Shown one piece after another: positions 37,015 through 47,022 of a stretch of DNA of 59,734 nucleotides. Origin of the DNA: a virus (lineage: Duplodnaviria; Caudoviricetes). The notes under the pieces were generated by a model. It was not told the origin of the DNA. It saw only the letters and a program-made list of their open reading frames with translations, and searched no databases. Where the stretch lies: IMG/VR virus record IMGVR_UViG_3300008267_000087, positions 1-59,734 of that record, one strand, 5' to 3'. The translations under genes were made by a program, and so were the position numbers. How positions within the stretch are numbered: the first letter of the stretch is position 1; each line of letters starts with the position of its first letter.

Positions 37015-37407
37015 ATGAAAAGATTCATATTTTTCCACGGATACCAAGAACTACACCCATTATTGGATATTGATTGGGACGCAATTAATAGATTAAATAA
37101 TCTAAACACAATCATCACCCCAACATGGACAGGTACAACTTATACACCAACTTGGGTGGTAAATCCGGGTCTAGTAACTTACACACCTGGATATCATGGA
37201 ACAATAACAACAACTCCAAACTATTTTGGTGCGGGTTATGTGACAATTCCATACAATGGAACGATAAACACAACAGCAGGATTTAGTAGTTTAACGACAT
37301 CAAACACAAACGGAACAACAACATACACAACCAGTGGAATGGGCGGAACTTTAACAACAGGTACCGCAACATTTAGGAATGCTACATTTACCTCAAAATT
37401 TATGTAA
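37015..37407 (+). CDS. FKFF-variant protein (MKRFIFFHGY), Thr/Gly-rich
   Basis: Start placed at ATG 37015. Confidence 0.7.
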   Translation: MKRFIFFHGYQELHPLLDIDWDAINRLNNLNTIITPTWTGTTYTPTWVVNPGLVTYTPGYHGTITTTPNYFGAGYVTIPYNGTINTTAGFSSLTTSNTNGTTTYTTSGMGGTLTTGTATFRNATFTSKFM

Positions 37408-37874
37408 TGACTAAATTCAAATTTTTCAGGGGTTATGTGGGAACATTAGATTTAATTGATGGAGAAACGTATGCAACAGCATCAATATTTGATCCTGTTA
37501 CTTATTGGACATCAGAAGAAATTGAAATAGAACGTATCCGACGTATGCAATTGGCTAATGAGTTTGATGGGCGAATAGAACAAATGCGTAACGATGAAGT
37601 TATCTCTCATGAACAATATATGAGGAATAGAGATATATTAATTGAACAGGAGAGAATAAGAAGATTAGCAATGATAAATCACTCAAGGGAAACCGATAAT
37701 CAAATTAGATTGTATCAAGCAACAAGGGTAACAACCGTTAATCCAAAGTGGTGGATGAAGATTAAGATAGTACTTCAAGAAACTTGGTTATCGGATCCTG
37801 TTGGTATGGTTGTGATGACATTGTTGGTTTCGGTTGTTACATTTATCGGTATATTGAAATTATTTGGAGCATGA
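37407..37874 (+). CDS. FKFF-motif protein with C-terminal TM helix
   Basis: MTKFKFFRGY. Confidence 0.72.
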   Translation: MTKFKFFRGYVGTLDLIDGETYATASIFDPVTYWTSEEIEIERIRRMQLANEFDGRIEQMRNDEVISHEQYMRNRDILIEQERIRRLAMINHSRETDNQIRLYQATRVTTVNPKWWMKIKIVLQETWLSDPVGMVVMTLLVSVVTFIGILKLFGA

Positions 37875-38143
37875 TAAAATCATTCAAATTTTTAACCAAA
37901 TATGAATACCATAGGTTCAGTCCTTATTGTTGTTACGACAATGCAAAGTTTATCATCGAAACTTTAATATCGACAGACGAATGGGAAACAACCATATTCC
38001 CAAAAGAATACCCACACGAAAATGGTGTATGGAGAGTTCTTTACATACATCATAGAGACAATAGTTATCACTCCGTAGTTTGTCATGAACCAGCTAATTC
38101 AGCGCACATAGTTGAGAGATTTTTAATTAATATCGATTATTAA
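37871..38143 (+). CDS. FKFF-motif protein
   Basis: MIKSFKFLTK; ATGA overlap with the upstream gene. Confidence 0.72.
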   Translation: MIKSFKFLTKYEYHRFSPYCCYDNAKFIIETLISTDEWETTIFPKEYPHENGVWRVLYIHHRDNSYHSVVCHEPANSAHIVERFLINIDY

Positions 38144-38151
38144 AAAATATA

Positions 38152-38183
38152 TTTGGTTTTAAATATATTCTACCATATATTTG
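38152..38183 (+). promoter_or_regulatory. Bacteroidota-type housekeeping promoter
   Basis: TTTG-N20-TATATTTG just upstream of ATG 38188. Confidence 0.7.
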
Positions 38184-38187
38184 CTCT

Positions 38188-38373
38188 ATGAAAATGACAA
38201 TAAAATATCACATCGAGGCATTTGTAGATGCCCAAGAAGTAGTAATCGAATGCGATTCATTAGAACAGGCGGAGAAAAAGTTTAAAAATTATATTAGTTC
38301 AGGCTCCGAGGCTTATCTATTTAAAACAGTTAACACAGGTAAGTCCACGAAGGAAGTGTTCCTAATATCTTAA
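38188..38373 (+). CDS. Hypothetical protein
   Basis: Has its own promoter. Confidence 0.6.
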   Translation: MKMTIKYHIEAFVDAQEVVIECDSLEQAEKKFKNYISSGSEAYLFKTVNTGKSTKEVFLIS

Positions 38374-38402
38374 TAATCAGATATTTATATAAAATAACTA
38401 TT

Positions 38403-38525
38403 ATGTCGTCAAAATTTTTTAACAATCCACAACAGCCCAAGGTGGCTAAAGGAGAAAAAAAGCCTATTCCAACCAAACCGATTAAATCTAACACACAGAT
38501 TAAGAAAACGGGTAGAGGGAATTAA
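38403..38525 (+). CDS. 40-aa basic peptide MSSKFFNNPQQPK...KKTGRGN (not in ORF track)
   Basis: Read by hand; TATTTATA at 38382. Confidence 0.55.
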   Translation: MSSKFFNNPQQPKVAKGEKKPIPTKPIKSNTQIKKTGRGN

Positions 38526-38566
38526 ACCAATCTGTTTACTATTTACTATTAATAGTAAAGTAAATA

Positions 38567-44562: not shown

Positions 44563-44872
44563 ATTCCTAACAAACCCTTTATTAGTTACGATTGATGGGA
44601 AAGAAATCTATACAGGTACATACTTCTATAGTATGAATAAGCAAGATATAATATTACCAAATAAGATAACACCCAAATATACAATTGTAATAAGATGTAT
44701 CCATCCAATTTATAAGGATGTATTCAAACCTGATTACGATACATTATTATATTTTAGCACAAAGGAATCTGCCGAATTCTATAAGAGTAGATTAATACAT
44801 TGGGATGAACACGTATCAGGGGGAGAAGTATTCCATAACAACGCTGACATAACATTAACATTTAGAAGATGA
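44549..44872 (+). CDS. FKFF-motif protein
   Basis: MKTFKFLTNP. Confidence 0.72.
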   Translation: MKTFKFLTNPLLVTIDGKEIYTGTYFYSMNKQDIILPNKITPKYTIVIRCIHPIYKDVFKPDYDTLLYFSTKESAEFYKSRLIHWDEHVSGGEVFHNNADITLTFRR

Positions 44873-45195
44873 TAGACAATTTTAAATTCTTACAACAGAA
44901 AAAAAAACAATTCAAGTTGTTTCATCTAAATGTCTTGAACGATGTGTTCGGTAGAATACCATCATATCCTTGTCCGTTTGAGCCATATGATAATAATACT
45001 GAGGACGTTTATGGAACTGTGGGTGATTTAATAAATGGTAGATTAGGTATCGTTGGCATTTTTACAACATTAGTAATTCAAAGAATAGGTAGTGGTACTG
45101 TTGAAATAACATATAGCAATATTGATGGTGTAAATGAATTGGGTTTAATATTTGCGCGTGAAGATAGAGTAATCGTTAGATACAAAAGAAGATAA
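44869..45195 (+). CDS. FKFF-motif protein
   Basis: MIDNFKFLQQ, with a second copy QFKLFH. Confidence 0.72.
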   Translation: MIDNFKFLQQKKKQFKLFHLNVLNDVFGRIPSYPCPFEPYDNNTEDVYGTVGDLINGRLGIVGIFTTLVIQRIGSGTVEITYSNIDGVNELGLIFAREDRVIVRYKRR

Positions 45196-45196
45196 C

Positions 45197-45418
45197 ATGA
45201 TAAAGCCATTCAAATTTTTTACCAACCCCGCAAAGAACAAATGTCGATTAACCATTGGCAGTAGTTTTATATTCCAAGGTTACTATTGCGTTGTAACAAA
45301 GATGGGGTATCGTGTGTTTTGTTATCATAACCAAGAAACAAACAAAACATGTTATATGACATATGAATTCTATTTAACAACGCAGTCCGCAATGGGAAGA
45401 CAATTAAATAAAAGATAG
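45197..45418 (+). CDS. FKFF-motif protein
   Basis: MIKPFKFFTNP. Confidence 0.72.
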   Translation: MIKPFKFFTNPAKNKCRLTIGSSFIFQGYYCVVTKMGYRVFCYHNQETNKTCYMTYEFYLTTQSAMGRQLNKR

Positions 45419-45520
45419 CCACAATAACGCGCGCAAAAGTCCGGTGGGGTTTCCGGCGCCCGAGCATCAAATATGAACACCGGTTTCCGAATCTCAAATA
45501 TTTTAGTTATATTTAATTGT

Positions 45521-46117
45521 ATGCGAAAATTCAGAATGTTCAGAGGTTATGTCAGCCCAAACATAAGAAGGGTTACACCACAACCAAGGCGTCCAAGGAC
45601 ACCACTGGCAAATATACCCGTACCTGAATATTACCACCCAACACTTCAACCGACATTCAGACATGGATGGAGAGCATGCGAAAGGGGTTTAGACATCCAT
45701 CAATGCCCACATACAGCCACCGATGAATGGACAGTAACGGTGAGAAGAGCATGGGAATATGGATACACAGAATGTTTCAACAGGGATAGAGAGGGCAGAG
45801 CGCAACTAACAACCGCGATGATAGATAACATTCAACAACCCGAGGAGCAACCAAGCGTAGAAGAATTAAGCAGGGAAATAGAAACGTTCAACGAACAAGT
45901 TAACAGGATCACATCAATAGGACAAACATTAGGGATTCTACCAACATATCGGGTGCAAAACGGCACGCTCGTAAACAATAACGATGAAGCAAGCTACCTG
46001 CTCGGATGGGAATGCGCAAGAAATGGACATCCCGAATCGGATAATTCATTTCCAGTGGATTCAAATGGATATGCTTTCTGGAGATGTGGGTGGAATGACT
46101 TTGTGAACAATCATTAA
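45521..46117 (+). CDS. FKFF-variant protein with two Rmf/CrpP-like domains
   Basis: MRKFRMFRGY; FRHGWRACERG..QCPH...RAWEYGY and YLLGWECARNG....SF.....AFWRCGW. Confidence 0.72.
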   Translation: MRKFRMFRGYVSPNIRRVTPQPRRPRTPLANIPVPEYYHPTLQPTFRHGWRACERGLDIHQCPHTATDEWTVTVRRAWEYGYTECFNRDREGRAQLTTAMIDNIQQPEEQPSVEELSREIETFNEQVNRITSIGQTLGILPTYRVQNGTLVNNNDEASYLLGWECARNGHPESDNSFPVDSNGYAFWRCGWNDFVNNH

Positions 46118-46165
46118 TAGAATATAATATCGCTAGATGTCCTCAGCGATTAAACAGGGGAATAT

Positions 46166-46402
46166 ATGATAGACGACTTCAAGTTCTTTCAGGAGAACCA
46201 CATACACGCTTATAATGGCTTTTTAGCAAGGGAAGCCATAGCTTACTTCCGTGAGTACGTTGCAACCAATAGAACGCTCTATGAGGTTACAACGTTAATT
46301 GCAACATATAAAATGGGAACGGTGTCCTTTAACGCGGGATTCCATATTAATAAAGGGGAAATAACCCCATATATAACAGCACATGAAATAGATTATGTTT
46401 AA
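46166..46402 (+). CDS. FKFF-motif protein
   Basis: MIDDFKFFQE. Confidence 0.72.
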   Translation: MIDDFKFFQENHIHAYNGFLAREAIAYFREYVATNRTLYEVTTLIATYKMGTVSFNAGFHINKGEITPYITAHEIDYV

Positions 46403-46784
46403 GTTCAAATTTCTAAGCAATAATAATGAGGATGAAGACATCAGTGCATGGGACAATCTATTTGCGGATGGTGATGATGAGATACGAGGGGATAATCTTC
46501 TAATACGTGACTCTTCCCCTTCATGGATGTGGGATGATGAAACTTACACAATATTTAACCCCGATACGCAACCCTATCAGCTTGTAACCCAAACATTTAA
46601 TGGGATAATGGACTTCCTTGCGGGATTCCCACCAGGTTATATTGTGGTTGTGCATAGAATAGAGGGAATGGAATCAGGAATGGTGCATACCGCAAATTCG
46701 GAAAGAATGGGGTGGGGATTCGATATTCAACATGATTTAATACGCATTACTTACTATCACTTTTTAAATACAGATCATGCTTAG
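46395..46784 (+). CDS. FKFF-motif protein
   Basis: MFKFKFLSN. Confidence 0.72.
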   Translation: MFKFKFLSNNNEDEDISAWDNLFADGDDEIRGDNLLIRDSSPSWMWDDETYTIFNPDTQPYQLVTQTFNGIMDFLAGFPPGYIVVVHRIEGMESGMVHTANSERMGWGFDIQHDLIRITYYHFLNTDHA

Positions 46785-47022
46785 AGAATTCAAATTTCTA
46801 ACCAATCCAATAGATAGGGTATTTTACTTCACCGTGGGTTTCAATGCTGCAAACCTTGTGCTATATTATAGCGGGGATATGGATGATATGTCCATACAGG
46901 GGATTATACACCATATGAAGGTGGAATATGACGATTTCATTGTGGGGGACTTAATCAGGCTTAAAATGGAATGTGAGATGAACCAGCATCTGCAGGGGAT
47001 ATCAATATTAAATGAAAGATAA
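46777..47022 (+). CDS. FKFF-motif protein
   Basis: MLREFKFLTNP. Confidence 0.72.
   Translation: MLREFKFLTNPIDRVFYFTVGFNAANLVLYYSGDMDDMSIQGIIHHMKVEYDDFIVGDLIRLKMECEMNQHLQGISILNER

Follow-up and report, generated by a model that had tools for sequence, protein, structure and literature searches.

Why do some twenty small proteins of one phage, most of them encoded in tandem and largely unrelated to one another, begin with the same few residues, and what might recognise them there? The question is raised by IMG/VR virus record IMGVR_UViG_3300008267_000087 (Caudoviricetes), the whole of which (59,734 nucleotides, or 59.7 kb, at ~32% G+C; a virus fragment, 18% complete according to CheckV) was analysed and is referred to here as the window. 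The original prediction was that about 21 proteins share a short N-terminal tag, Phe-Lys-Phe-Phe/Leu, which routes many cargos to one hub. Our analysis confirmed that this tag opens ~20 small, largely unrelated proteins and that its occurrence is real and far above chance. A short peptide selected on many unrelated cargos is well supported. We tentatively favor the view, to which we give somewhat less than an even chance, that the tag serves as a docking peptide at the chain end, through which cargos purged of lysine would be passed to a single reader whose chemistry is directed at lysine.

All 21 predicted starts were found at their coordinates, 17 of them with a strict M-x(0-4)-F-[KR]-F-[FL] and four with variants (FIFF at 37015, YKFF at 39732 on the minus strand, FNFF at 41392 and FRMF at 45521). 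In a six-frame scan of the window, F[KR]F[FL] occurred 30 times, in 17 cases within 5 residues of the start methionine of an open reading frame (ORF) of at least 69 residues. The strict tag was present in 17 of 120 called genes, as compared to the 0.1-0.2 expected under two null models of 2000 trials each, one in which residues 2-12 were shuffled within each protein (mean 0.18, maximum 3) and one using composition-matched random N-termini (mean 0.10, maximum 2). Inside proteins, the core motif occurred only 3 times in 16,832 internal residues, two of these being near the C-terminal end of membrane proteins. A logo built from 35 family representatives and 90 proteins read M-[I]-[K/R]-[P/D/K/E/T]-F-K-F-[F/L]-[R/Q/T/S/K]-[G/K/N], with no conservation beyond, and proline often preceded the tag (25 of 90 tagged proteins). 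The motif is enriched over background, the true starts do not lie downstream of it, and the cargos are not full-length paralogues of one family, the three points on which the original prediction had proposed that it could fail.

Relatives of the window in IMG/VR span 70-335 kb. Two of them, G001 (324 kb) and G010 (336 kb, 100% complete), are near-complete and encode a T4-type head module consisting of a capsid protein of 574-591 residues, an acidic scaffold and an S77 prohead protease; the window itself is without head genes. On the basis of these head genes, the lineage can be placed as an uncultured giant T4-like phage group.

Several observations made on the window and its relatives indicate that selection acts on the tag as a peptide, as had been suggested from its synonymous codon variation. 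Among 72 distinct tag instances from the window plus relatives, the wobble bases varied at the genome-wide rate or more: the first Phe codon was TTT in 44/72 (74% in the genome), the Lys codon AAA in 58/72 (75%) and the second Phe codon TTT in 49/72 (74%). The DNA pattern of the tag in relatives was found in frame with ATG, apart from background-level matches. Replacements within the tag were mostly conservative (K to R, N or I; F to Y, L or M), with a Lys still present within the first 6 residues. In the family of gene 44197, which comprises 166 metagenomic homologue clusters, the tag was retained in 118 of 120 among the matches listed. The peptide has also been joined to cargos of independent origin and, as described next, to the other end of proteins.

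Two membrane-type proteins carry the tag at the C-terminus. The protein at 40492..40989 (+), which has a hydrophobic N-terminus, ends in KLDFKFFRG followed by the stop codon, and this tagged end is also kept in L001, L002, L009, L010 and G010. The protein at 26226..26645 (+) has KLKDFKFFQS 9 residues before its C-terminus, and its G010 homologue ends ...KLKDFKFLSGGK. Both C-terminal tags are preceded by K-L, and the lysine content of both window proteins is normal. Because the same peptide occurs at these C-terminal ends, the N-terminus as such is not what is recognised; the recognised unit is therefore ~7 residues, [M/I/L]-[K/R]-x-F-K-F-[F/L], near either free end. The bare motif can also occur outside the tag system: an unrelated 65-residue ORF beginning MKPFKFFIKSM recurs in L174, L176, L182, L195, L196 and L200 (24-27% G+C), with a normal 6% Lys and no array.

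The proteins had been reported to share no similarity past about residue 10. This was largely right, except that leaders of ~20 residues are common to several families in a mosaic pattern and that two window pairs cluster. In an all-against-all BLASTP of trimmed sequences, the only link was between 41392 and 45521 (E 6e-5), and single-linkage BLAST clustering joined 43257 with 44549 and 45521 with 46777. When trimmed clusters were compared by hhalign (35 clusters from the window and seven loci, with shallow profiles), a probability above 80% was obtained only for RMF-like groups and one other pair, and all but 3 cluster pairs fell below 40%. Pfam and PHROGs searches with 20 tagged window proteins matched only a capsid fragment; 41392 and 45521 had no Pfam match at E<=0.1. 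A Pfam scan of 84 tagged proteins gave three RMF matches (PF04957, E<=0.01, best 4.5e-5), one Gp23 match, and four single-member matches at E 0.005-0.008 that were taken as noise; none of the other proteins had a match. The Gp23 match (E 3.6e-7; phrog_138, major head protein) is to the tagged gene at 10464..10802 (-), beginning MIREFKFFHG, which encodes a fragment of a T4-type major capsid protein. Its residues 10-71 align to residues 251-312 of T4 gp23 (chain 6uzc_a), and over 57 residues it shares 51% identity with the capsid protein that the lineage itself encodes. The Gp23-fragment match was present in all five records G000-G004, with a tag start just upstream in G001, G003 and the window. 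Since the capsid-fragment and RMF-like cargos are of separate origin, the cargos derive from at least two unrelated parents, and descent of all of them from one paralogue family is thus disfavored, although some of the others may be distant kin, the profiles being shallow.

Comparison of relatives showed how different bodies come to stand behind one tag. The slot 3' of the conserved gene 44197 holds four different cargo families across five genomes. Sequence identity at these junctions was 88-98% over the 60 nucleotides upstream and 71-88% over the 24 nucleotides of the tag, and dropped to 24-35%, the random level, over the next 66 nucleotides in 9 of 10 pairs. As identity collapses right after the tag, recombination at the tag-coding sequence swaps bodies between relatives, the join falling precisely at the tag. 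At the 44549 junction, the stop codon TAA of the upstream gene lies inside the F-K codons, so that exchange at the tag leaves both genes intact. The array evolves by cassette exchange, in which recombination between near-identical tag-coding starts swaps the body and keeps the end of the upstream gene together with the tag.

The tag is abundant in some relatives and missing from others. In G010, the N-terminal tags number 22, of which 20 form a single 14-kb array and 2 adjoin the capsid-fragment gene, and the same two C-terminal ones are also present, which amounts to ~24 tags per complete related genome. G001 contains 6 tags, two with GTG starts; homologues that had been regarded as untagged in this genome turned out to be tagged behind GTG starts, and tag counts that consider ATG alone are therefore undercounts. 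The sister genomes G006 and G007, which share the head genes, gave no convincing tag even on a fuller scan, and in the near-complete genomes G005-G008 the ATG-start tag pattern was at background level only. A scan of IMG/VR for one common tag start returned 43 stretches, 11 of which were multi-tag, lysine-poor arrays, at least 6 of these 11 being on contigs already counted as relatives of the window.

The cargo bodies behind the tag are strongly depleted of lysine. In the window, tagged bodies contain 2.2% Lys and 6.5% Arg (n=21), as compared to untagged proteins no longer than 200 residues, which contain 8.4% and 3.9% (n=73; Mann-Whitney p=8e-10), and for all loci combined the figures for Lys are 2.3% (n=90) and 8.6% (n=264). 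Lys is at 9.2% in the products of 23 small untagged genes that lie among the array genes or beside them. Following the tag, Lys makes up 13.9% of residues 1-4 and 8.9% of residues 5-8, and then 1.1-2.9% over the remaining length. No other residue showed a comparable change; the bodies are richer in Arg (7.2 vs 4.4%), Tyr (6.7 vs 5.3%) and Thr. Eighteen of the 20 most lysine-poor window proteins are tagged. A Lys-free run of at least 50% of the length, which defines a lysine desert, was found in 14/21 tagged and 12/99 untagged proteins, the definition having been published for proteins of at least 150 residues and most of the tagged ones being shorter (PMC13696103). The capsid-derived body of 10464..10802 has no Lys where its parent capsid protein has one in the aligned stretch.

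We also considered whether the depletion operates on codons. In-frame AAA decreased from 6.06 per 100 codons in untagged to 1.53 in tagged genes while the A fraction was steady (0.366/0.367), so that selection works against the lysine residue, not the codon. Out-of-frame AAA dropped only from 4.7-4.9 to 3.4 per 100 codons, and the AAA:AAG ratio was unchanged. Together with the Lys codons in the tag itself, these values ruled out avoidance of an AAA-directed nuclease or loss of tRNA-Lys as the cause. Low lysine is also seen in a few proteins that are not tagged. Within the window, the protein at 769-1005 (+), which looks like part of the fibre region, has 0/62 Lys, and that at 57133-57414 (-) has 1.3%. 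In the complete genome of G010, strongly lysine-poor proteins are otherwise limited to consecutive giant fibre-like proteins (893-1631 residues) and ~240-residue paralogues at 226505-250000 (L115-L116), which have 0.3-3.5% Lys and equally low Arg.

The tagged genes encode proteins of 73-198 residues and are arranged in tandem, overlapping in part. The array opens with 37015..37407 (+), which bears the FIFF variant (MKRFIFFHGY; body Lys 0.9%) and for which three homologues were found, the L002 copy reading FKLL. It continues with 37407..37874 (+; MTKFKFFRGY; Lys 2.9%), which has a hydrophobic C-terminal tail and 7 tagged homologues in relatives, the one in G001 starting with GTG, and with 37871..38143 (+; MIKSFKFLTK; 2.7%) and 38952..39278 (+; MFKFKFLVSN; 2.2%). 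The gene at 39496..39732 (-) carries the variant MEYKFFHGKR (3.1%), its orthologues beginning MEFKFLRG. Next come 40986..41390 (+; MMIPFKFFKG), with 0.8% Lys and Arg at 10/118 residues, and the variant 41392..41916 (+; MIKAFNFFRG; 1.3%), whose body is related to that of 45521. Also inside the array region, an HNH-endonuclease-like ORF at 38567..38890 (+) contains 21% Lys (PF01844, E 0.001, below the curated cut-off).

Twelve consecutive tagged genes complete the array. The first, 43030..43257 (+; MKTFKFLSKK), is followed by 43257..43652 (+; MIKDFKFFRA; Lys 5.2%) and by 43642..43878 (+; MGFKFLRN), which overlaps the gene upstream by 11 nucleotides and has an alternative start at 43633 (MKIMGFKFL). 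After 43881..44204 (+; MTPFKFFQKP; 1.1%) and the conserved 44197..44562 (+; MIKPFKFFQK; 1.9%) comes 44549..44872 (+; MKTFKFLTNP), with an overlap of 14 nucleotides and 8.7% Lys. The genes 44869..45195 (+; MIDNFKFLQQ; 1.1%) and 45197..45418 (+; MIKPFKFFTN; 5.3%) precede the variant 45521..46117 (+; MRKFRMFRGY), whose 183-residue body has zero Lys and which is Lys-free over a run of 195 of its 198 residues. The last three are 46166..46402 (+; MIDDFKFFQE), 46395..46784 (+; MFKFKFLSNN), with a lysine-free body, and 46777..47022 (+; MLREFKFLTN). Away from the array, the capsid-fragment gene, also with a lysine-free body, has a conserved tagged neighbor at 10795..11037 (-; MDFKFFKGDE).

How could a tag and a lysine purge belong together? 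In the explanation that we favor, the tag [M/I/L]-[K/R]-x-F-K-F-[F/L], which is carried on a flexible chain end and leads into ~8 residues with much Lys, Arg, Gly, Asn or Gln, would give ~21 small proteins one address, so that all could be handled by one common reader. From about residue 9 after the tag, three quarters of the lysines are gone from the bodies, and arginine has been gained instead. The reader, or a machine that it feeds, would act on Lys amino groups by cutting after Lys, by conjugation or by cross-linking; the Lys-rich leader would be the intended site, and the body would have been purged against off-target action. Both the existence of one common reader and its action on lysine are inferred, the latter from the purge beyond the leader. 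Docking to a protease or adaptor, one of the options offered in the original prediction, is strengthened by the purge.

Several observations weigh against this explanation. No reader was found, and the only candidate in the window (35411-35956) is also present in tagless relatives. The tag Lys is replaced in ~10% of instances, so that there can be no strict need for its amino group there. The 44549 body is normal at 8.7% Lys, the only such body in the window, and three other bodies have ~5%. The two proteins with C-terminal tags have normal lysine, which needs an ad hoc explanation. A structural model of 44197 (AlphaFold 2, 45 sequences) reached a predicted local distance difference test (pLDDT) score of 41.8 and was unusable for deciding whether the tag is free or packed. 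Finally, loss of Lys with gain of Arg and Tyr could have a different function, for example in helping the proteins to partition into an assembly. Attempts to find the reader by phyletic profiling yielded 74 G010 proteins that are present in G001 and absent from G006 and G007, too many to single one out; they are mostly glycosylation, fibre and SGNH-like genes. Docking on a sliding clamp was dropped, as no large G010 protein ends in a tag-like motif.

A more specific form of the lysine-chemistry explanation, which we regard as rather unlikely, is a phage-encoded system in which a dedicated enzyme, possibly the caspase-like protein encoded at 35411-35956 in the role of a peptidase or transpeptidase, would use F-K-F-[F/L] as its docking site and work on the Lys-rich leader, thereby releasing a lysine-free effector or joining cargos to the C-terminally tagged membrane proteins. 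If this were true, one enzyme would process or place a swappable arsenal of ~20 host-directed proteins. Alternatively, the cargos would be adaptors, themselves free of lysine, by which host targets are delivered to a lysine-directed ligase.

The main rival, unlikely in our estimate yet with more to recommend it than the other alternatives, is a head-loading signal comparable to the capsid-targeting sequence (CTS) of T4, in which the tag would bind the prohead core or scaffold, and the cargos would be packed and injected as host-takeover or anti-defence proteins. The internal proteins of T-even phages are described as diverse, with only the targeting sequence in common (PMC3012670). The T4 CTS is described as an N-terminal leader of 10-19 residues in which residues 4 and 7 serve targeting and residues 8 and 10 processing, and the T4 internal proteins as basic (PMC9026906). 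Prohead loading is in keeping with the T4-type capsid protein, scaffold and S77 protease of the relatives and with the tagged capsid-protein fragment, but the expected processing site is missing: [LI]-x-E was present in residues 8-30 of 10% of 90 tagged and 26% of 264 untagged proteins, and the logo contains no conserved Glu. The lineage's capsid protein, as read from its sequence, bears an I-N-E motif at what we take to be the position where T4 gp23 is cut, which would fit a Glu-specific protease. The tagged bodies, moreover, are acidic (net charge -3.1 per 100 residues) and lysine-poor, unlike the basic T4 proteins; membrane proteins, too, bear tags, at the C-terminal end; sister phages that share these head genes are tagless; and the purge is left unaccounted for.

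One head-module protein provides a lead in favor of this rival. A 141-residue, lysine-rich protein encoded directly upstream of the S77 protease, presumably the position of T4 gp67/68, ends in a tag-like motif, L-[FY]-N-F-x, in 4/4 genomes checked, the tagless ones included. The ending is KLFNF[YH]KSKK in G010 (122449-122874; L110:2449-2874) and G001 (~83423-83845), and SLYNFNDKKK and TLFNFFEKK in the tagless G007 and G006, respectively. This protein had no GenBank phage match and no PHROG; PHROGs searches with 6 proteins beyond the 20 tagged ones also gave no match.

A sub-case of the lysine-chemistry explanation, distinctly doubtful in our view, assigns the role of reader to the conserved 181-residue protein at 35411..35956 (+). 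As a Lys-specific clan-CD-type cysteine peptidase, it would cut the Lys-rich leader and leave a lysine-free, protease-resistant protein, which would account for both the leader and the purged body. The gene lies 1.1 kb upstream of the array, a position kept in the relatives examined. His53, Gly54 and Cys92 are invariant in 38/38 aligned sequences and directly follow strands 47-52 and 87-91 of a confident AlphaFold 2 model (pLDDT 90.8); in the caspase fold (clan CD), His-Gly likewise stands behind one core strand and Cys behind the strand that follows. The best structural match was the SAVED-CHAT protease domain (Z 9.5, root-mean-square deviation 3.3, 153 aligned residues), and MALT1, metacaspase, legumain, separase and gingipains R and K, the latter two specific for Arg and Lys, matched with Z 6.9-7.9 over residues 1-179. 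However, flavodoxin-like folds matched nearly as well (Z 7-9), and the Foldseek E value was only ~2e-3. No Pfam or PHROG family was found for the protein, nor was PF00656 found in G000-G004; ESM Atlas gave only viral clusters without a name and a DUF6642 lead at 0.85.

Genomic distribution speaks further against this assignment. The protein is only a weak candidate for the reader because tagless sister phages keep it, at 53-69% identity, and a tag was present within 10 kb at only 29/80 loci holding the gene. A terminator-like hairpin (36608..36633, +; 11 pairs, then a T run) separates the block of the 35411 gene from the array, and lysine is normal in other phage proteins. Complex prediction with 44197 scored 0.00 without controls and was uninformative either way. 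Four longer homologues of the caspase-like protein were also seen, one of which, P0243 (459 residues, 56% identical), has a PCI-domain match (PF01399) and may be a gene-call fusion. Two neighboring genes complete this block. Adjoining the caspase-like gene, and kept there in relatives, 35020..35409 (+) encodes a 129-residue protein with a DnaA C-terminal helix-turn-helix domain (PF08299, E 1.2e-15). Between that gene and the array, 35965..36396 (+) is a cyclophilin-like ORF, judged by eye only, with no counterpart in the seven relatives compared.

Two further explanations are each very improbable. In the first, the tag would be a self-association element whose aromatic F-K-F-F strands pair and gather the tagged proteins and the two membrane proteins into an assembly or condensate, the gain of Arg and Tyr and the loss of Lys tuning their partitioning. 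The alternation of aromatic and basic residues in the tag, the richness of the bodies in Arg, Tyr and Thr, the presence of the tag at the other end of the membrane proteins and the fact that no separate reader was found are all in line with this idea. Composition is nevertheless its sole basis, without structural support, and a motif this sharply defined, in which the Lys is fixed, is more usually seen where a binding pocket is involved.

In the second, the cargos would form one fast-diverging paralogue family that arose by tandem duplication and in which only the N-terminal strand is still recognisable. The tandem layout with overlapping genes, the clustering of 43257 with 44549 and of the RMF-like groups, and the leaders shared between families would be expected on this basis. 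Against it are the unrelated folds from which the capsid-fragment and RMF-like cargos come, lengths that range from 73 to 198 residues, the low probabilities given to most cluster pairs by the (shallow) trimmed profiles, and the replacement junctions, which show exchange of bodies rather than divergence in place.

Least probable of all is that the tag is a signal in the nucleic acid and its peptide a by-product (an AU-rich region for starting translation in a host without Shine-Dalgarno pairing, the site of a translational regulator, or simply recombination or stop-start punctuation): although a Shine-Dalgarno-like motif (GGAG/GAGG/AGGA, 20 to 5 nucleotides 5' of the start) precedes only 6/120 called genes, as compared to 8.1% of random 17-mers, TTTAAA of the F-K codons provides the upstream stop at 44549-44562, and breakpoints fall at the tag, the first Phe codon is TTC in 28/72 instances against 26% in the genome, the opposite of selection for AU, the motif is in frame only, the same peptide occurs at C-terminal ends far from starts, and the coupled purge of lysine works at the residue level. 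From the count of Shine-Dalgarno-like motifs, the phage seems not to use Shine-Dalgarno pairing, which fits a host that does not use such pairing, presumably one of the Bacteroidota type.

Other searches concerned the setting of the array. Neither the array DNA nor protein 37407 matched GenBank phages, and a 612-residue PcfJ-like protein gave only Bacillus phage matches at 9% coverage; no cultured relative was found among GenBank phages. A promoter scan of 33.5-49.5 kb returned 101 sites, as compared to 87 +/- 10 in shuffles, and no inference on timing was drawn. The lineage is abundant in metagenomes, with 166 clusters for the 44197 family and 1971 for the caspase-like protein.

A 7-residue address carried by ~20 exchangeable proteins would offer a concise way to pick out one functional class of genes from the 'dark matter' of giant phages, even where the role of each gene is not understood. 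The coupled loss of Lys, in a genome of 32% G+C, is an uncommon mark of selection on composition, which G+C bias cannot explain; it suggests that proteins undergo chemistry directed at lysine (cleavage, conjugation or cross-linking) while the phage infects a host that appears to do without Shine-Dalgarno pairing. Were the reader found, the tag could also be put to use as a portable handle, in the way that the T4 targeting sequence has been used to deliver proteins. Literature searches on the tag and on capsid targeting found no paper on a phage system of such form, in agreement with the original prediction.

Four kinds of known system invite comparison. Lysine deserts have been described in proteins that operate near lysine-directed machinery, namely in components of the ubiquitin system, in toxin A chains trafficking via the endoplasmic reticulum and, as a proposed way of avoiding the Pup-proteasome, in Actinobacteria and phages (PMC10665810; PMC13696103). 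Among phages, deserts are described there only for high-G+C Mycobacterium phages, in which high G+C is a confounder (PMC13696103). The tagged bodies are similar to these deserts in the selective loss of Lys, in Arg being kept or gained, and in the gathering of leftover Lys in one terminal segment. They differ from those of Mycobacterium phages in that the present phage has 32% G+C, a base composition that favors lysine, and in that the desert is tied to a sequence tag. A ubiquitin-like or Pup system did not turn up here, where no search aimed at one was made, and literature searches on the tag, capsid targeting and lysine deserts found no tag-linked desert in a low-G+C phage.

The T4 CTS, found on IPI, IPII, IPIII and Alt, is the nearest of these analogues and, like the tag, a short N-terminal leader that alone is common to diverse small proteins of a T4-type phage; its aromatic residues matter for targeting in T4, and the proteins differ between related phages. 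The tag described here has another sequence, is not followed by a Glu cleavage site, stands on acidic, lysine-poor bodies, numbers ~21-24 cargos per genome, is also present at the C-terminal ends of membrane proteins and is known from genes alone.

Encapsulin cargo-loading peptides and the encapsulation peptides of bacterial microcompartments address unrelated proteins to one shell. As with the tag, a short terminal peptide is used, which can stand at either chain end; here, however, the only shell gene is that of the phage capsid, the motif is different, and we know of no lysine purge among encapsulin or microcompartment cargos. In the leader peptides of ribosomally made modified peptides, one enzyme serves many precursors that have a conserved leader and variable cores. 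The cargos here are proteins of 73-198 residues rather than short cores, and no modifying enzyme has been identified, but the two systems are alike in placing a conserved N-terminal recognition motif on hypervariable sequence, often in tandem arrays.

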